DNA of 44,278 nucleotides from a virus. The DNA is taken from the UHGV virus genome UHGV-0261880; one strand, written 5' to 3'. Below are positions 1 to 26,322 of the stretch, one piece after another. The first letter of the stretch is position 1. The number at the start of each line of letters is the position of its first letter. The notes below the pieces were generated by a model. That model made no database searches, had not been told where the DNA came from, and was given only the letters and a program-made list of their open reading frames with translations. The position numbers and the translations under genes were made by a program.

Positions 1-2331
1 ATTATGCCTTGCTTCGTTGCCGAATGAAAACTCAGTTTTTAGCGCACTATTCCCCGTGTAGATTGCTTCTTCCGGTGCGGATAGCATAATCACCTCGCGG
101 TCGTGGCTTCCTTTGATAACAGAGATACTCTGCACAGAGCCGTCGCGCTTCTTGAGGATGATGGAGTGGTCATCGCCGGGGGTAAACGTAACCGGCTGTG
201 ACAGTGTCAGCGTAAGCCCATTAACGGCAACAACATAGCCATCCTGCGGCGCGATACGCGAGCCTTTGACCACACTGATTACGCCTCCCGGTGTAGCGAG
301 TGCCCCCTCTTCCGTAGCTTCGAACTCTACGACAACTTTACTTAATGCATTGCGCTGATAGCGACGCCACGCCAGCCAATATGCCTGTTGGTAGTTGCGC
401 ACGCCTTTTGACTCGTATTCCTCAGTGTTTGCGCCGAGTTCTTCCGGGATATAAATCGTTTCCTGTACGTTCGTATCCGGGTCGATGTACGAGAACGACA
501 GGCTATCGTAGGTTGTCGAATCGTTGAATGTGCGCGTCCATTTCTCCGTACCGGTAGTTTTACTGCGGTGGGTGAACACCATCTCAGGCCCAGCAACCGG
601 ACGGTCGAATCGCAGCATAATATCCGCGCCTTTACGATATGCGGTACAGAACACGGCTTCCGCTATAGTCTGAACGATGTCCTGCATCGTGGTGTCGTAG
701 TCGTCGAACGTGTAGCAGAACTGCCCTGCTAACTCGCTACCGAAATAGGACTCAATTTCTTCCTGCACGGCAAGCAACTTATCCATGTTTGCCGTTGTCA
801 GTTCCAGATTACCTACTGCAGGGTCACGAGCCAGTCGGATTAGCGATTGTACGGCTTGCGTGTTCGGGGTCATTACTGTATCGAATACCCCATTGCCTAG
901 ATATTTGTAGCACATCTCGGTTGCAATCATGCGCAGTTCCGGGTTGTCAATACTGGCGGCACGCGGTGTCTGTTTACGGGCGCAATGTACGGTAGTTCGG
1001 TTGCCGTAATGCGGGGTTGTGTCCAGAGACTGCCCGTACAGGTTGATGAATGTTATCTCATCACTTACGGTCCCGTCGTAACCCTTATCGAAATTCGTTA
1101 TACGGCGCATACGGGCGCGGAAACGAGATGCAGTAGGCAACTGCCCATAAATAGACGTGCCGACGTAGTCAGTATTATTGCCGGTAATTGTTGCCCGTAC
1201 CGTGTAGATATCGCTCAACGGGTTACGCCGAGAATCAATCATCTGGTACTGGAGTTCCACCGTTACGCTGGTGCGGTTATAACCGCCGTCGTATTTGTAG
1301 AGGCCGTTCTGCCCTGCGACGTTAACGAGCACCCGGTCAACTTCTCCGCGAACCATGTAATACCAGTCGGTAAGGGATACGTCATAGGTGTTGCTAGGGC
1401 CGATGAACGTATCTGAACGCTCTGTCAGGGCGTAAGTCTGCCCACTATTAAGATTGCCCCAGTTACCTATATTCCCGACGTACAACTGAACTTCGAAGTC
1501 GTCGACATATAAAACCTCAAACGAGCCGTTCAGGTTAGTGACGTCCTTAACGTCAAAATTGCTCAACACTGCGACGTCACCAACACTAAGAAACTCAGAA
1601 AAAGCCGAGTCACCAGACGGGTCATAGAGGTAGCCGGTGGTCGAAATACGTTTGGCGGTCCCACCGGCGCTTGGGTTAGCCCCAATGTCGTTTGGCGCTT
1701 TGAGCACAATACCGTCAACGTCGTCATTGGAGTACGTCACATAGAGCTTCTGGTCAATGACGTCGCCGATTTGTAGTTGTGGCGATGTGGTGTTGTTCGG
1801 TGACGTATACGGCGCATACACGGCAACAGAGGAACCAGTGATATCGCTTATCAGGGTGTCGCCTTCTGTGACACCATTTGCCTCAATATGCAGATGCCCG
1901 CGCCCCGCGTCATAGTACGAATACTCCAGCAAAGCACCAGTGGAGTTGAACGCCTTGTACGTCTGCATCAGGTCATTAGGGATTGTCTGTACAGTCCCAC
2001 AGATGTCATATGAGCGCTCGTAAGGGCGAGGCTTGTTGGATCGGTCTGTGAGGCTATTATTCGGCGACGTTGTCTGGTAGTTAGTCGCCGTGTAGTTGGC
2101 ATTAGGTGTCTTGTTAAGGCCAAATAACTTGGCAATTGGCTTAAGGATAAAACCGAATACACTCCCGATAGCTTTGCCAATGCCACCACCTGACCCCTCA
2201 ATAATGTGGTACACAGCGTCTTCGTCTTTAAGCGCTTCGAAGTCGTCTGTAACATCAGTATCATCGCCGATCTCGCCGAGATAGACGCGCACAGGTACAC
2301 CGTCAGGAATACGGTTAACAACAAACTCCAT
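1..2331 (-). CDS. Tail tip / host-specificity fibre protein (J-like), N-terminal part; 3' end lies beyond the left window edge
   Basis: Minus-strand frame opens at ATG ~2331 (alternative TTG ~2403 preceded by GGAGA) and translates MEFVVNRIPDGVPVRVYLGEIGDD... with no stop for at least ~270 codons; absent from ORF track because its stop is outside the window; sits directly downstream of the K-like gene. Continuity to position 1 was not fully verified. Confidence 0.5.
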   Translation of the reverse strand, partial: MEFVVNRIPDGVPVRVYLGEIGDDTDVTDDFEALKDEDAVYHIIEGSGGGIGKAIGSVFGFILKPIAKLFGLNKTPNANYTATNYQTTSPNNSLTDRSNKPRPYERSYDICGTVQTIPNDLMQTYKAFNSTGALLEYSYYDAGRGHLHIEANGVTEGDTLISDITGSSVAVYAPYTSPNNTTSPQLQIGDVIDQKLYVTYSNDDVDGIVLKAPNDIGANPSAGGTAKRISTTGYLYDPSGDSAFSEFLSVGDVAVLSNFDVKDVTNLNGSFEVLYVDDFEVQLYVGNIGNWGNLNSGQTYALTERSDTFIGPSNTYDVSLTDWYYMVRGEVDRVLVNVAGQNGLYKYDGGYNRTSVTVELQYQMIDSRRNPLSDIYTVRATITGNNTDYVGTSIYGQLPTASRFRARMRRITNFDKGYDGTVSDEITFINLYGQSLDTTPHYGNRTTVHCARKQTPRAASIDNPELRMIATEMCYKYLGNGVFDTVMTPNTQAVQSLIRLARDPAVGNLELTTANMDKLLAVQEEIESYFGSELAGQFCYTFDDYDTTMQDIVQTIAEAVFCTAYRKGADIMLRFDRPVAGPEMVFTHRSKTTGTEKWTRTFNDSTTYDSLSFSYIDPDTNVQETIYIPEELGANTEEYESKGVRNYQQAYWLAWRRYQRNALSKVVVEFEATEEGALATPGGVISVVKGSRIAPQDGYVVAVNGLTLTLSQPVTFTPGDDHSIILKKRDGSVQSISVIKGSHDREVIMLSAPEEAIYTGNSALKTEFSFGNEARHN

Positions 2332-2393
2332 CGGCGTCCCGACGTGTTTTGTACGGTCGAAAGCGCCGTCGGCGTTTCGCGTGTAGTGCAGGA

Positions 2394-2759
2394 TTATCGC
2401 CAAAATTCAATCTCCGTGTACGTGTCTCTGAGGTCCGCCAGCCTGTCAAGCCGTACCTGACGTGACGCAAGCTCGCAATGGCTGACCATCCCGTCGAAGT
2501 AGACTCCTGCGTGCCACACGATACGACCGCCACGGCGATACCCCATAAGCACCGCGCAGAAGTTTTCAGGCTTATCAATTTTCGTAAGCCCCTTCGTGTC
2601 CCGGCGGCCTTCGTCAAACGCTTCGTTAATCGCCGTTGGGCTTGTAACGTCGAACGCCGGTGTTTCTAACCCGGCATCCGCCCGCACAATTCGCACATGA
2701 TGCCAGCAATTGCGCTTGCGAAAGTCGTAAGGTATGCCCGTGTAGTCGTTAATGTTCAT
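2394..2759 (-). CDS. Tail assembly protein, NlpC/P60-type peptidase (lambda K-like)
   Basis: 121 aa; Cys in NCWHH and downstream His in WHAGVY resemble the NlpC/P60 Cys-His pair; position between minor tail proteins and J-like gene. Confidence 0.55.
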   Translation of the reverse strand: MNINDYTGIPYDFRKRNCWHHVRIVRADAGLETPAFDVTSPTAINEAFDEGRRDTKGLTKIDKPENFCAVLMGYRRGGRIVWHAGVYFDGMVSHCELASRQVRLDRLADLRDTYTEIEFWR

Positions 2760-3286
2760 GTGGTCAACAGGCCGCGTAATAACGGTATCTCTTTAGGTGT
2801 CATCAGTATACCAGTGCTTCGTTGGTGCAGCATAGGTGTACCAACATCTGCGGAGAACTCGCCTTTCTCCTGGTTGATAGCCTGCAACTCGTACACGACC
2901 GGGCCGTCAGCCGGATAAGACAGGTCGGTGCTGACGTAACGGCGGAAGACGAACTTAGGCAACTCAGTATTGCTCATCGGGATTTTATCCATCTCATCAT
3001 CCAGTTGATTGAGGATATCCGGTAAAGTAAACGTCGTAGTCTGGTCCATATCACTGTTGTTAGCCGCTCCCGACGCCTCCATCGGGGTTGGCTCGAATGT
3101 TATTGCTTCGCCCGTCTCCAGTGTTGCTGTAAGTTCCTGCAGCCCGCGAACAAGATAGTACGTCTTTGACAGCAACGGGTGGCTGATTTGCAACGTGATG
3201 TAGTCCATCTCGCCGTCGGGGTTTGAGGCCAGTTTACGGCGATAGGCGGCTTCTACTGATTCCTGGCTCATTGCATCGGGTCCCAA
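2756..3286 (-). CDS. Minor tail protein (L-like position)
   Basis: 176 aa ORF overlapping its neighbours by a few nt in the tail module downstream of the tape measure; call by synteny only. Confidence 0.45.
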   Translation of the reverse strand: MGPDAMSQESVEAAYRRKLASNPDGEMDYITLQISHPLLSKTYYLVRGLQELTATLETGEAITFEPTPMEASGAANNSDMDQTTTFTLPDILNQLDDEMDKIPMSNTELPKFVFRRYVSTDLSYPADGPVVYELQAINQEKGEFSADVGTPMLHQRSTGILMTPKEIPLLRGLLTT

Positions 3287-15271: not shown

Positions 15272-15973
15272 TTATTTCCTCAGGGCTTTAAGTTGCCGTT
15301 CAAATTCGGCAGGGTTCGATTTGTACAGAGCTAAACGCTCCGCTTCACTCATGTCTTTAAACGCTGGTGCGGCCCCGCCGCCTTTGCTACCGGAAGCCCC
15401 GCCGCCGGAAGCTGCATTTGCTTTAATCAAATGCGAAAACGCTTTGTGTTCGCGCAGGTATTTGCGGAACTGTTCCGGGTCAGTCGTGATCACGTTGCCG
15501 TCTGCGCCGACAAACTTAGTAACCACATCATCACCTTCGAACTCAGTCTTAACGAACGGTGCAAGGATGTCCACTGCTTCCGGAGTAATAAAGTCACCCG
15601 CGAAAGAGCCTAACACCGCTTTACGTTCGCTGCCGAGGATGCGCTCTGCCATCTTGGAGATGCGACCATCTTTCTCGGCTAACACCGGGTCATACTGGCT
15701 ACGAATCGTCTTTTCGAACTCGTCCATCTTACCAGCGGCTTTTAACGCCTCCTGGTGCGCGCGCTGCCGTTCTTCTTCAGCCTCTTTTGCTTTACGGGCG
15801 GCTTCTTTCTTCTCCGCCAGCAATGCTTCCTGATTAGCCTTAAGCCCGGCAACTTCTTTTTCAATCAGCGCCTGAACTTCTTCGGCAGTGAACATTTTAG
15901 GCGCATCTCCGCCACCGGATTTATCTTCTGCCCCAGCTTCTTCCTGGAACGGATAACGTAAAAAACGATTCAT
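15272..15973 (-). CDS. Scaffolding protein
   Basis: Track ORF 15272..16027 trimmed to ATG ~15973 (MNRFLRYPFQEE...) with GGGGA RBS; Ala/Glu/Lys-rich coiled coil; precedes major capsid gene. Confidence 0.6.
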   Translation of the reverse strand: MNRFLRYPFQEEAGAEDKSGGGDAPKMFTAEEVQALIEKEVAGLKANQEALLAEKKEAARKAKEAEEERQRAHQEALKAAGKMDEFEKTIRSQYDPVLAEKDGRISKMAERILGSERKAVLGSFAGDFITPEAVDILAPFVKTEFEGDDVVTKFVGADGNVITTDPEQFRKYLREHKAFSHLIKANAASGGGASGSKGGGAAPAFKDMSEAERLALYKSNPAEFERQLKALRK

Positions 15974-16055: not shown

Positions 16056-16319
16056 CTATTCCAGAATATTCCTCACGTAATCCTGCAACATGAACACTTT
16101 CAGCCTCAGTTGCCGTACACATTCGGCGTTCTGGACGTCGATAGCCAAATCCTCATCCGCGTCGCTACTTGGCGCTGCCAGTTTGCACGGCGGCTGCATC
16201 ATCGTCGTATCCGGGGATGGAATTGGCGTTGGTGACGGCGCGGGACTTGAGCTGCACGCGCTCAGGGTCAAAAGTGCACACGCTGCGACCAGGCGTTTTA
16301 ATGTACTTAACGACTTCAC
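16056..16319 (-). CDS. Outer-membrane spanin (Rz1-like lipoprotein), overlapped with i-spanin gene
   Basis: 87 aa; signal peptide with lipobox LTLSAC; Pro-rich segment PAPSPTPIPSPDTTMMQPP; starts inside and extends past the 16165..16551 gene in another frame. Confidence 0.55.
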   Translation of the reverse strand: MKSLSTLKRLVAACALLTLSACSSSPAPSPTPIPSPDTTMMQPPCKLAAPSSDADEDLAIDVQNAECVRQLRLKVFMLQDYVRNILE

Positions 16320-16551
16320 GGGTAATTACCTCTGATTTCGTCTTGCCTTCGTTGTCGGCGGCTGCGGCCTTTGATTCGTCCTGCTGCTGCCGTTGTGTTT
16401 TCTTCGCCAGCTCAGCCTGTGCTTTCTGCTGTTGCTGCGAAACGAGATTCGCCCGGCCTTCGTTCCAGCCGCTGCGATACTGATAAATGCCGTGGGCGTA
16501 GACCAGGATGATGAAACAAGCTCCCGCTACGACAGTTGCTTTAAGATTCAT
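16165..16551 (-). CDS. Inner-membrane spanin (Rz-like)
   Basis: 128 aa; N-terminal TM segment VVAGACFIILVYAHGIY followed by Gln/Ala/Lys-rich predicted coiled coil; overlapped by lipoprotein ORF. Confidence 0.5.
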   Translation of the reverse strand: MNLKATVVAGACFIILVYAHGIYQYRSGWNEGRANLVSQQQQKAQAELAKKTQRQQQDESKAAAADNEGKTKSEVITREVVKYIKTPGRSVCTFDPERVQLKSRAVTNANSIPGYDDDAAAVQTGSAK

Positions 16552-16802
16552 GTTTCCCCTTTCTCGATAAGTAAAGCCCCGCCTTAAAGCGGGGCGCTAG
16601 TCCTTATCATTTAAACATAAAAACAGCGTAATCTCAGTAAACCCGTTACTTTTTACACAAGCAATAGAGTATGGCCCTTCCGAACGCGTCAGCGTAACTA
16701 CACTCAGGACTTACGTCCCGCTCCGTTACCTGCCCGCGCCGCGGTCGCTTGTTCATACTTCACAAGCTCAGGTGGAGCTTAGCACATTTTCAGTGAAAAG
16801 TC

Positions 16803-16818
16803 AACTATTCGAATAGTT
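16803..16818. promoter_or_regulatory. Perfect 16-bp palindrome AACTATTCGAATAGTT
   Basis: Contains the same AATAG/CTATT half-sites as the promoter-associated element but in everted arrangement; lies ~55 nt upstream of the 16871 promoter. Confidence 0.4.
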
Positions 16819-16870
16819 TATTCCAACATTTACAATTCGATGGAATAACTGTAATACATAATCAAATAGT

Positions 16871-16899
16871 TTGCACACACCGATATAATAGGGTACTAT
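16871..16899 (+). promoter_or_regulatory. Sigma70-like promoter TTGCAC-N17-TACTAT with embedded palindrome
   Basis: TTGCACacaccgatataatagggTACTATtca, 30 of 32 nt identical to the 6959 element; ~30 nt upstream of the 16932 GTG start. Confidence 0.5.
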
Positions 16900-16931
16900 T
16901 CATTGCATCGAAACGAGAGGAGGGGTATAAA

Positions 16932-17246
16932 GTGAAAGATGAATTTAAAGGTACGAAAGGACCGTGGGAGTTCAAGAAAGAAAAAGGAGAGCAGGAATGG
17001 TTCGTGTTCCAGAAAGGCTCATTAAAGAAAATGTACGGCTGTACTATACGGACGCCAGTAGCCGAAGAAATTAATGATAAACATGACGCCGAACTTATTT
17101 CCTCGGCTCCGGAGTTACTTGAAGCTCTTCGCCAGCTTCGCGATTATGTTGAGGATGTTTGCGCGGTATCTTCTGATGATTGCCATGAAGACCATCCATT
17201 AAATCTAGCCAACAGAGCAATCAAGAAAGCATTAGGAAAGAAATAA
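16932..17246 (+). CDS. Hypothetical protein, opposite-strand insertion in head module
   Basis: 104 aa, GTG start with GAGGAGGGG RBS; own promoter and terminator; antisense to flanking head genes; ~42% GC. Confidence 0.6.
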   Translation: MKDEFKGTKGPWEFKKEKGEQEWFVFQKGSLKKMYGCTIRTPVAEEINDKHDAELISSAPELLEALRQLRDYVEDVCAVSSDDCHEDHPLNLANRAIKKALGKK

Positions 17247-17250
17247 AACT

Positions 17251-17275
17251 AAGGCCCCATAACGGGGCCTTTTAT
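17251..17275. terminator. Bidirectional terminator AAGGCCCC-ATAAC-GGGGCCTT
   Basis: 8-bp GC stem followed by TTTATC on plus and preceded by AAATAAAA (T-run on minus); between convergent genes. Confidence 0.55.
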
Positions 17276-24767: not shown

Positions 24768-25271
24768 TCATTTAACAGCCCTCCCAATAGCCTCTGCCTC
24801 CTGCCACGGTTTACCGTCGAACAGTGCCAGGCGACCTGCAACACGTCGGCGTAGACCTAACACAGGCTCGAGTTTACCTGTTTTCGGGTTGCGTTGGTTA
24901 ATGAACTGGCTCATCTTGTGCCGTAAGGTAGGGGTGTCACCCTGCCGCAGCGCCTTACCGGTTCCGGTAGTAGCCGCGATAACGCCGGTTCCTGCGTTAA
25001 ACACCAGGTCAACAACGGCATCGAACTGAGCCTGGGTCAGAGACGGATGGGCTACTTCATCGACTGCTTTCACCGCCCACTGCATATCGCGGTTCAGTAA
25101 CAGCAACCCCTGGCCTTCGGTAATCTTCTGCCCTTCATACACATCCGGACCGGTATGACCCCAACCTATAGTCCAGTATTTTTCGTTCTTTGTTGCTTTG
25201 TATGCAGTTCCGCGAAACTTCTCCCACGCTTTCTTGAACTGCAATCCATTATCTGAAATATTTCGAGACAC
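24768..25271 (-). CDS. Endolysin, phage lysozyme (GH24-like)
   Basis: Track ORF trimmed to GTG ~25271 with GGAGG RBS; NISDNGLQFKKAWEKF...YWTIGWGHTG matches phage lysozyme N-terminal pattern. Confidence 0.8.
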   Translation of the reverse strand: MSRNISDNGLQFKKAWEKFRGTAYKATKNEKYWTIGWGHTGPDVYEGQKITEGQGLLLLNRDMQWAVKAVDEVAHPSLTQAQFDAVVDLVFNAGTGVIAATTGTGKALRQGDTPTLRHKMSQFINQRNPKTGKLEPVLGLRRRVAGRLALFDGKPWQEAEAIGRAVK

Positions 25272-25521
25272 GCTTATGTCCTCCGTACGACAGCCACGCC
25301 TGACGAATCTGACGCAGCGCAACTAATGTGATTAACGTCTCGGGCAACGTAGGCGACATGCTGCCCTGTAACAGGTGGATACATCCGGCGGCGCAGACTA
25401 TAGCGGTCAGGATATAGAGCACCCGGCCAAATAGCCCGTCGTCAACGCTGGGATGGTACACATTAAACAGCGATGTGCCCCCGATTGCCAGCATACCGCC
25501 GAACCAGAATAACTCATTCAT
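25249..25521 (-). CDS. Small two-TM membrane protein (second holin / antiholin candidate)
   Basis: Track ORF trimmed to ATG ~25521 (MNELFWFGGMLAIGG...); two hydrophobic helices; overlaps holin stop and endolysin start. Confidence 0.45.
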   Translation of the reverse strand: MNELFWFGGMLAIGGTSLFNVYHPSVDDGLFGRVLYILTAIVCAAGCIHLLQGSMSPTLPETLITLVALRQIRQAWLSYGGHKRVSKYFR

Positions 25522-25822
25522 CTGGGCCTCCTCGACGTGCGATGTATTCTCCGGCGACGATGCTGGAGAGACGGGAATAGATAGGCATCCAGAGAACAGC
25601 GATAATGAAGCCCAGGCCTGCGATTTCACGGTCGCCCGTGATACCGAACCATTGAGCCGCGAGAGGTGCACCGAATACGGCGCAGGTGAAGCCAGTTGCA
25701 ATAAAGCAGAAGCCGTCGATAGGGCCAGAAATAACGGACTTATGTTGTCGTAGGCCGATTACCCCTCCTGCTAGTGCGGCAGCCAGAAGCCACCCCGTCA
25801 CTGTTTCAGTAAATTTATCCAA
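25514..25822 (-). CDS. Holin (three predicted TM segments)
   Basis: 102 aa; TM-like segments VTGWLLAAALAGGVIGL, GFCFIATGFTCAVFGAPLAAQWF, IAGLGFIIAVLWMPIY; charged C-terminus; upstream of endolysin. Confidence 0.55.
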   Translation of the reverse strand: MDKFTETVTGWLLAAALAGGVIGLRQHKSVISGPIDGFCFIATGFTCAVFGAPLAAQWFGITGDREIAGLGFIIAVLWMPIYSRLSSIVAGEYIARRGGPDE

Positions 25823-25881: not shown

Positions 25882-26322
25882 TTATCCTAATAGTTGTTTG
25901 GTAATAATCTTGCCACCGGTGTTAACGTCGAACTTCGATGCAACGGCTACGCCACCATGTGCCGAATACCCGCATTCCATAGCCGCTAACGCATATGGCG
26001 AGCCAGACCCCACGGCGGCAAAGCTATCGGCAACTGGAATAACAGAACTTAGTGCACAATCCCATGATTTATAAAACGCGACTTTATACACCTTTTCTGT
26101 GTCTTTCACGAACACCAGGGCTTCGAAATCGAAGTCATAGTGCTTAGGCACTAAAATTCCTCTGTCCCCAACGAGAATATCCCCGACTCCCGCGTCACCG
26201 GCCACACCGATAACGGCAAAGTCATTCTCGTATATCTTTGTGTCTGTGTTGTAGCAGTTACTTCCGCACACAACACGGGTATCACAAGCCATTGTCTTTC
26301 CGTCGAACGCGATAGTAGTCAT
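25882..26322 (-). CDS. HslV/proteasome beta-subunit-like N-terminal nucleophile hydrolase
   Basis: 146 aa; begins MTTIAFDG (Thr right after Met, as in HslV); Lys ~28 residues in; AVGSGSPYALAAM matches HslV GSGGPYA block. Confidence 0.65.
   Translation of the reverse strand: MTTIAFDGKTMACDTRVVCGSNCYNTDTKIYENDFAVIGVAGDAGVGDILVGDRGILVPKHYDFDFEALVFVKDTEKVYKVAFYKSWDCALSSVIPVADSFAAVGSGSPYALAAMECGYSAHGGVAVASKFDVNTGGKIITKQLLG

Follow-up and report, generated by a model that had tools for sequence, protein, structure and literature searches.

A predicted overlapped spanin gene pair of the Jersey family in the head-gene module of a Kagunavirus-type genome

Gene organization of the locus

Two overlapping reading frames on the minus strand of the virus genome UHGV-0261880 (44,278 nucleotides, referred to here as the window) very probably encode a two-component spanin of the Jersey family. 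Both frames had been listed at these coordinates in the first-pass annotation, which left their strand unstated. The locus contains the following features:

16551..16165, minus strand: i-spanin gene (Rz-like), ATG start, TAG stop, 128 amino acids
16319..16056, minus strand: o-spanin gene (Rz1-like lipoprotein), GTG start, TAG stop, 87 amino acids
16165..16319, minus strand: dual-coding overlap of 155 bp, read as the C-terminus of the i-spanin in one frame and as the signal peptide and linker of the o-spanin in the +1 frame
16328..16333, minus strand: Shine-Dalgarno-like AGAGGT of the o-spanin, with an 8-nt spacer to the GTG
15272..15973, minus strand: head scaffolding gene (phrog_206, E 2e-55), 82 nt downstream of the o-spanin stop

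A nucleotide search with the 3.7 kb around the pair matched 498 phage records, of which 139 have a query coverage of 80% or more. Kagunavirus phages match best, with approximately 91-93% identity, namely Golestan, Bas71-76 (BASEL), and the K1-capsule phages, and the first 25 kb of the window shows the same match behavior. Given these matches, the window is assigned by sequence to the genus Kagunavirus of the subfamily Guernseyvirinae. Its structural and lysis genes are on the minus strand.

The i-spanin has only one hydrophobic stretch, at residues 5-23 (mean Kyte-Doolittle 1.85), which bears out the earlier designation of 16165..16551 as a transmembrane (TM) protein. A single N-terminal transmembrane helix with type II topology is predicted from this stretch. 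It has polyQ runs, with a predicted polyQ-containing helix, and its cysteines are Cys12 and the periplasmic Cys92, the latter invariant in seven aligned homologues, down to 33% identity. In a single-sequence AlphaFold2 model, residues 3-63 form a helix with pLDDT of 74-92, where the confident helix ends, and residues 68-128 are mostly below 50; for the i-spanin of the Jersey subfamily, Kongari et al. predicted two helices and two short strands (PMC6139136). Among the PHROG profiles, phrog_2536 ("Rz-like spanin") matches the i-spanin over its full length (E 4e-57). The closest match is the protein of Bas71 (98.4% identity), with 96% identity to K1ind1 and 63% to SS3e, and tblastn finds the i-spanin in 666 phage records.

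The o-spanin contains the PROSITE PS51257 lipoprotein pattern at residues 12-22 (AACALLTLSAC), with the lipobox LSAC, Cys22 as the lipidated residue, and Ser23 at position +2. The signal peptide is its only hydrophobic segment. The mature protein of 66 residues has 9 prolines, a Pro-rich linker with the motif MMQPPC, and cysteines at positions 45 and 67. The lipoprotein frame with its lipobox, the overlap in another frame, and the Pro-rich stretch with MQPP were therefore all described correctly in the first-pass annotation. The o-spanin starts 232 nt after the i-spanin start, which places it in the +1 frame, and it extends 109 nt beyond the i-spanin stop. It matches phrog_5672 (E 3e-30) and phrog_1267 (E 2e-20), is 98.9% identical to its closest match, in EM1, and 92% identical to that of K1G, and is found by tblastn in 665 phage records with the same genus distribution as the i-spanin. 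The two ORFs co-occur in these 665-666 records. The products are two separate proteins and the o-spanin has no C-terminal transmembrane domain, which sets the pair apart from unimolecular spanins of the T1 gp11 type.

A Pfam search gave no match for the o-spanin and nothing above threshold for the i-spanin, where only a weak DUF2514 hit was obtained (16.8 bits versus a cutoff of 26); the lambda-type Rz and Rz1 families were not found for either protein at E <= 0.1. For this reason, the family assignment is based on PHROGs, BLAST, and the literature. Kongari et al. (2018) defined a "Jersey" family of overlapped spanins that includes those of Jersey, SETP3, SS3e, K1G, K1H, and K1ind1-3, with a 155-bp overlap in phage Jersey, invariant o-spanin cysteines 45 and 67, and two polyQ stretches in the i-spanin as its hallmarks (PMC6139136). 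The overlapped architecture, the 155-bp overlap, Cys45, Cys67, and the polyQ are all present in the pair of the window, and the identity to the spanins of K1G, K1ind1, Bas71, and EM1 is 92-99%. In the annotation of phage Shashou by the Center for Phage Technology, the i-spanin gene of 387 bp and the o-spanin gene of 264 bp, described as "containing an N-terminal lipobox", are offset by the same 232 nt. The earlier comparison with lambda Rz1 holds in the sense that the pair is the same kind of system, and fails at the level of homology, which is not detectable with Pfam: the pair belongs to the separate Jersey family.

Coding status of the o-spanin frame

The lipobox alone is not a significant motif in this genome, given that a relaxed scan of all six frames found one in about five other ORF loci of the window. 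That further lipobox-like ORFs arise by chance is what would speak for the o-spanin frame being itself a chance alternative-frame ORF, with the TM protein as the only real product. The sequence comparisons leave the likelihood of this next to nil. The o-spanin has a PHROG family match and is conserved down to 40% identity, and the 109 nt past the i-spanin stop are strongly periodic, as expected for coding in the o-spanin frame. It is conservation that lifts this ORF above chance. Indeed, in 80 related IMG/VR loci that were retrieved via alignment of the i-spanin and whose neighboring genes were located by tblastn, an ORF with a lipobox and a signal peptide is found in the same relation to the i-spanin in 80 of 80, by a strict or a relaxed rule. 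The strict lipobox rule scored 71 sequences (70 loci and the window), and the remaining 10 loci were judged by inspection; these have the relaxed lipoboxes LNGC (nine Jerseyvirus-type loci) and QCSC (one lambdoid locus). In the 71 sequences D is absent from position +2, where S, A, G, N, Q, R, or K is found, and 37 of them have the 155-bp overlap. The two periplasmic cysteines of the o-spanin keep a constant spacing of 22 residues in all loci.

Codon-position diversity was computed on 40 distinct sequences with identical spanin geometry. In the non-overlapping segment of the o-spanin, the nucleotide diversity is 0.087, 0.032, and 0.249 at codon positions 1, 2, and 3, respectively, the pattern left by purifying selection on a protein. 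Within the 155-bp overlap the variation follows the frame of the i-spanin, and therefore the signal peptide and linker of the o-spanin are the tolerant partner. Taken together, conservation and codon periodicity effectively refute a chance origin of the frame.

The start of the o-spanin requires a separate discussion. The GTG at 16319 is the only start that gives the protein a signal peptide, given that a stop codon lies two codons upstream, and a ribosome-binding site is annotated in Shashou at the same place as AGAGGT 16328..16333. Many database records instead annotate a 47-residue product that starts at Met41 (MMQPPC...), among them RefSeq Golestan gp08 and Bas76_0009, and profile phrog_5672 likewise has 47 positions. 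If only this short product were made, there would be no lipoprotein. This is extremely unlikely, given that a product without a signal peptide could not get to the periplasm, that the upstream signal peptide and lipobox are kept in 80 of 80 loci despite the turnover of their sequence, and that the GTG start has a good ribosome-binding site. Moreover, 64 cases of a wrongly annotated o-spanin start were reported by Kongari et al. (PMC6139136). The truncated form in these records matters for the mining of lysis genes from these phages, which are widely used therapeutically.

In the 1995 record of MB78 the o-spanin frame is annotated as "p11.5"; the frameshift claimed there concerns the scaffold gene and not the spanins.

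Position relative to the holin and endolysin genes

The other lysis genes of the window are found upstream of the packaging genes:

25822..25514, minus strand: holin (phrog_2359)
about 25521..25249, minus strand: second holin (phrog_2508)
25322..24768, minus strand: endolysin ORF (phrog_7)
24768..25822, minus strand: holin-holin-endolysin cassette, with the same order in Bas76

The distance from the end of the endolysin gene to the start of the i-spanin is 8.2 kb, a segment that holds the terminase, portal, and head-morphogenesis genes. The minus-strand order is holin, holin, and endolysin; small genes; terminase, portal, head-morphogenesis (Mu F-like), and Hoc-like decoration genes; an opposite-strand gene; i-spanin and o-spanin; scaffold and major capsid; and tail genes. 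The spanin genes are thus not contiguous with those of the holin and endolysin, as they would be in a classical cassette of the lambda SRRzRz1 type, although contiguity is not a defining feature of spanins. No spanin features were found in the ORFs beside or after the endolysin, and there is no second credible spanin candidate anywhere in the window.

The PHROG matches and the 8.2-kb gap substantiate the earlier view of an overlapped spanin pair in the head block, unlinked from the holin and endolysin. Two of its details need adjusting. The holin-endolysin cassette at 24.8-25.8 kb is real, and the distance that had been given as about 9 kb is 8.2 kb when measured. The pair does lie between the head-morphogenesis and scaffold genes, but the Hoc-like decoration gene, the opposite-strand gene, and a 380-nt regulatory region intervene on the upstream side.

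This layout is widely shared. The pair is beside head genes in 63 of the 80 loci (i-spanin 42-97% identical), typically between the head-morphogenesis and scaffold genes. Downstream, these 63 loci have the scaffold gene and usually that of the major capsid protein; upstream, every contig of sufficient reach has the head-morphogenesis gene. Where the upstream flank is long enough, most of these loci have the holin and/or endolysin gene 6.7-9.7 kb upstream on the same strand. Almost without exception, the Kagunavirus and Jerseyvirus loci have the scaffold gene at a fixed offset of +524-526 nt from the i-spanin start. The pair of the remaining 17 of the 80 loci (approximately 40% identical) is found about 500 bp after the start of an endolysin gene, with no head genes adjacent. 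Placement in the head module is also seen in Jerseyvirus SS3e, in Cornellvirus VSiA, and in two Dhillonvirus genomes, and the split layout is present in every Kagunavirus, Jerseyvirus, Cornellvirus, and Dhillonvirus locus examined.

Given that the 63 loci, SS3e, VSiA, and the two Dhillonvirus genomes share this placement, the comparison marks the split arrangement as a fixed trait of a large lineage, with the same protein family in the classical position elsewhere. The arrangement is also in print: the separation of the spanins from the holin and endolysin was stated in 2019 for the Guernseyvirinae-like phage Schulenberg (PMC6763661), and in Golestan the spanins are ORF7/8 while the holins and endolysin are ORF66-68 (PMC7203180). 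It is clear that the pair was already known: its family is catalogued, it is a typical representative of that family, and it occupies the position published as typical. The suggestion that a split lysis cassette is uncommon is not borne out for this lineage, and the modular acquisition proposed for this genome finds no support in a layout that is fixed across the lineage; acquisition would be an old event at most, and not a feature of this genome.

The region upstream of the spanin pair

Immediately upstream of the i-spanin, approximately 300 nt show very strong conservation, which exceeds that of the neighboring genes. In 179 phage records, a region of 299 nt that comprises leader, promoter, and palindrome has 93-98% identity; among them are Salmonella phages with an i-spanin of only about 77% identity. 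The features of the region, including the hairpin beyond it, are:

16818..16848, no strand assigned: inverted repeat TTATTCCA-N15-TGGAATAA, just upstream of the -35, a candidate operator or activator site
16776..16804, minus strand: predicted sigma-70-type promoter TTGACT-17-TAAGCT with extended -10 TG, called from its conservation
16552..16775, minus strand: structured 5' leader of 224 nt, from the predicted promoter to the i-spanin ATG, with a Shine-Dalgarno sequence at 16556-16562
16576..16595, minus strand: GC-rich terminator-like hairpin in the leader, 24 nt before the i-spanin ATG, with a weak U-tract (UUUACUUAUC)
17251..17271, no strand assigned: bidirectional terminator-like hairpin after the Hoc-like gene, matched in position by an annotated terminator of Shashou

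The inverted repeat is unique in the window, with 0.01 copies expected by chance, and is largely conserved in the Kagunavirus and Jerseyvirus loci; it is also seen in one Cornellvirus-like locus, L060. The promoter motif is present in every distinct Kagunavirus or Jerseyvirus upstream sequence scanned except L017, where the -35 is one base off (CGACT), and the predicted promoter is the only zero-mismatch copy of the motif in the window. A standard sigma-70 scan of the window did not report it, given that the -10 hexamer is weak (3/6). In the Kagunavirus type of leader the promoter motif lies mostly 224 nt from the ATG (range 212-225), and in the Jerseyvirus type 197-198 nt.

The leader has a predicted fold with a minimum free energy of -82.7 kcal/mol (z = -4.4). 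The consensus of 38 distinct sequences contains 36 pairs, 9 of which have compensatory double changes, and 98.7% of cells are paired, versus 33-53% when the partners are slid by one to three columns. This covariation is suggestive rather than proof, because most of it reflects one split between Kagunavirus and Jerseyvirus and because the structure was derived from the same alignment. Independent compensations are seen in one internal hairpin of the leader (L025, L035) and in the terminator-like hairpin (L021/L022, L054), for which the Jerseyvirus loci also have compensatory changes. A predicted long-range helix pairs the 5' end of the leader (16757-16766) with 16563-16572, between the hairpin and the ribosome-binding site of the i-spanin, of which it touches two bases. 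Rfam gave no match in the whole window at gathering thresholds, and none for 16500-17000 at E <= 10. A covariance model of the leader and nhmmer found no copy in the Cornellvirus-like, Dhillonvirus, or lambdoid loci.

Two further observations concern this region. In the Cornellvirus-like locus L060, a similar palindrome and a GGAAGGGCC motif can be recognized by eye, where no reliable alignment is obtained. The leader also contains an ORF of 36 codons (16756..16646), which is annotated as "hypothetical" in Shashou and Bas76 and whose start codon is lost in Jerseyvirus; on these sequences it is probably not a gene.

The hairpin at 17251..17271 would separate an upstream packaging and head unit from a unit of spanin, scaffold, and capsid genes. 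What lies between this hairpin and the pair varies among loci, from nothing to a small ORF, a sliding-clamp-like gene, or an opposite-strand transcriptional regulator. We infer that the spanin, scaffold, and capsid genes form a unit with a promoter of its own, in which the spanin genes come first and the leader is regulated or processed. Such a unit lends some substance to the "separate late regulation" that had been raised for the pair, which is plausible given the conserved predicted promoter and leader directly upstream. More tentatively, and with considerable doubt, the palindrome, promoter, and leader (16552-16848, minus strand) may form an undescribed regulatory element that controls the timing or strength of spanin-scaffold-capsid expression. 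It could work by attenuation or antitermination, by RNA processing, or by translational masking. An antitermination of the promoter-leader-terminator by a lambda-like Q was considered and rejected: the annotation of the close relative Bas76 contains no Q-like gene, and the U-tract of the hairpin is poor. In the sole transcriptome paper on a Guernseyvirinae phage, lysozyme is among the middle-stage genes, spanins and holins are unmentioned, and there is no operon-level resolution.

Proposed function of the pair

Small phage lipoproteins with roles in exclusion are known, for example Llp of T5 and Cor. Together with a location in the structural-gene block and not beside the endolysin, this allows the pair to be read as an envelope module with a role outside lysis, such as a superinfection-exclusion or receptor-blocking lipoprotein and its membrane partner, co-expressed with the structural genes. 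The position among head genes is indeed atypical of a classical lysis gene and counts against a spanin, as do the lack of a Pfam match above threshold and the low model confidence for the C-terminal half of the i-spanin. Nonetheless, a role outside lysis is very unlikely, given that in the lambdoid-type loci homologues of both proteins directly follow the endolysin and that the genome would otherwise have no spanin. Furthermore, the pairing of a TM protein with a lipoprotein, with conserved periplasmic cysteines, is the signature of spanins (PMC6139136). The preferred reading of the two genes is that of a two-component spanin, for which the ORF structure, the targeting signals, the family membership, the conserved position, and the co-occurrence are direct observations. 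In the literature consulted on the Jersey family, no experimental test of any of its spanins was found.

The localization of the two proteins, their complex formation, membrane fusion, and the transcription unit are modeled on lambda Rz/Rz1, as summarized in PMC6139136, and on the homologues found in canonical cassettes. The N-terminal helix of the i-spanin would anchor it in the inner membrane, with the remainder reaching into the periplasm. After export, the o-spanin would receive its lipid at Cys22 and proceed to the outer membrane, given that its +2 residue is Ser and not Asp. The two proteins would then bind via their C-terminal parts to give disulfide-linked complexes that cross the periplasm, stabilized by homotypic disulfides for which Cys92 of the i-spanin and Cys45 and Cys67 of the o-spanin are the candidates. 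Degradation of the peptidoglycan by the endolysin, which the holins encoded at 25.2-25.8 kb make possible, would leave the spanin complexes free to act. They would disrupt the outer membrane, most likely via its fusion with the inner membrane, and lysis would be complete.

For the spanin pair itself little is at stake, and the analysis confirms a correct gene call. In this lineage, the genes for the last step of lysis probably share their transcription with the most abundant structural genes and not with the holin. This placement agrees with a view in which spanins are synthesized early and the cell wall keeps them inactive up to the action of the endolysin. The part worth experimental attention is the conserved upstream promoter and leader. 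The promoter-palindrome-leader element is the only item of the locus that may be new.

Comparison with known spanin systems

Like lambda Rz/Rz1, the pair combines a type II inner-membrane protein with a lipoprotein of the outer membrane, whose gene is in the +1 frame, and it shares with that system a Pro-rich o-spanin and periplasmic cysteines. There is no detectable sequence homology between the two. Lambda Rz1 is fully embedded in Rz, whereas the o-spanin of the window runs 109 nt past the i-spanin stop. The position also differs, given that Rz and Rz1 come immediately after S and R in the lambda late operon, whereas the pair described here is 8.2 kb from the holin and endolysin genes. In this last respect it is similar to pseT.3/pseT.2 of T4, where the spanin genes are also not near those of the holin and endolysin (PMC6139136). 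T4, however, is a myovirus in which all lysis genes are scattered, and its spanin genes are separated instead of overlapped and belong to an unrelated sequence family.

The Dhillonvirus spanins (gp05/gp06 of TheodorHerzl, gp58 of JL1) occupy the same slot in the head module, between the minor capsid and scaffold genes. They are distant homologues, with 33% identity in the i-spanin and approximately 50% in the C-terminal half of the o-spanin. The Dhillonvirus i-spanin is shorter (109 residues) and abuts the head-morphogenesis gene without the promoter or leader element, and the slot for opposite-strand insertions is after the pair, whereas in the window it is before it. In the lambdoid Klebsiella phage 2 LV-2017 and in related prophage-like contigs, the i-spanin is about 40% identical, the PCK...DEDL...C.RQLRL core of the o-spanin is conserved, and the overlap is 125 bp. 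Unlike the pair of the window, that of Klebsiella phage 2 LV-2017 is part of a canonical cassette, directly after the endolysin (lysozyme) and downstream of the Q antiterminator.

The closest likeness is with the Jersey family itself, which has products of 128 and 87 residues, the 155-bp overlap, Cys45 and Cys67, the polyQ, and the same slot before the scaffold gene. Nothing of substance differs between this family and the pair of the window, which is a further allele of it.

Predicted promoter and leader of the i-spanin gene, and the holin neighbourhood

The DNA immediately upstream of the i-spanin gene, together with the slot that lies beyond it, contains the following features:

16552-16848, minus strand: palindrome, predicted sigma-70-like promoter and structured 224-nt leader, conserved, adjoining the i-spanin gene
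16646-16756, minus strand: 36-aa ORF inside the leader, 'hypothetical protein' in relatives (Shashou_007, Bas76_0007)
16932-17271: slot carrying a plus-strand 104-aa ORF (phrog_1273, unknown function) that ends at a bidirectional terminator

The 299-nt promoter-leader region is found in 179 phage records at 93-98% identity, which makes it more conserved than the genes that flank it. The structure of the leader upstream of the i-spanin gene has covariation support, and the leader includes a terminator-like hairpin on the minus strand of the window. No Rfam family was found for the region. In Jerseyvirus, an 11-nt deletion takes out the ATG of the 36-aa leader ORF while the RNA helices are retained and, for this reason, the ORF is probably not coding. 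Separating the Hoc-like gene from the predicted spanin promoter, the slot at 16932-17271 is a site of variable insertion. In relatives it is empty, or occupied by a sliding-clamp-like gene or by a transcriptional regulator.

The holin neighbourhood comprises:

25882-26322, minus strand: HslV-family peptidase-like gene (phrog_1040, E 4e-35), adjoining the first holin gene upstream
25249-25822, minus strand: two tandem holin-family genes of different families, phrog_2359 then phrog_2508

The two holin genes of the window overlap by 8 nt, and the descriptions given for relatives are of a holin/antiholin pair or of class I/II holins.

Start and overlap of the o-spanin gene

The conserved form of the o-spanin is the 87-aa, GTG-initiated protein. 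Many GenBank/RefSeq records, and the 47-position profile phrog_5672, place the start at Met41, an annotation that loses the signal peptide and the lipobox:

2857-3000 of the Golestan locus L001 (gp08) and of the Bas76 locus L002 (Bas76_0009), equivalent to window 16056-16199: Met41-start o-spanin

In the 1995 record of the Salmonella phage MB78 (X87092.1, L090 1232-1555), the o-spanin frame appears as 'p11.5' with an extended N-terminus. According to a claim in the same record, the scaffold gene (p26/p28) undergoes ribosomal frameshifting close to its 3' end (L090 2252-2258). An alternative-frame ORF inside the tail-gene region of the window (2315-2617, minus strand) also has a lipobox-like signal (…AVAVVSCG), probably a chance match, and served solely as a background estimate for such matches.

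Within the dual-coding overlap (16165-16319), nucleotide variation is highest at the third codon positions of the i-spanin, which are second positions for the o-spanin, and therefore the i-spanin frame is the constrained one. The signal and linker of the o-spanin are tolerant of change, provided that hydrophobicity and the lipobox persist.

Insertion into the overlap in a related phage

In Escherichia virus fEg-Eco19 (locus L009) the spanin overlap has been interrupted:

3001-4065 of L009: HNH homing endonuclease gene, an insertion in the spanin overlap

The i-spanin of this phage has a new C-terminus (119 aa), with a remnant of the old one persisting downstream, and the signal peptide of its o-spanin is new and non-canonical (MRLPILLLVIWCYGC). 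With the insertion and the altered spanin ends, the architecture of the pair is thus now 'separated', which resembles the T5/Shivani case in the 2018 survey of Kongari et al. (PMC6139136).
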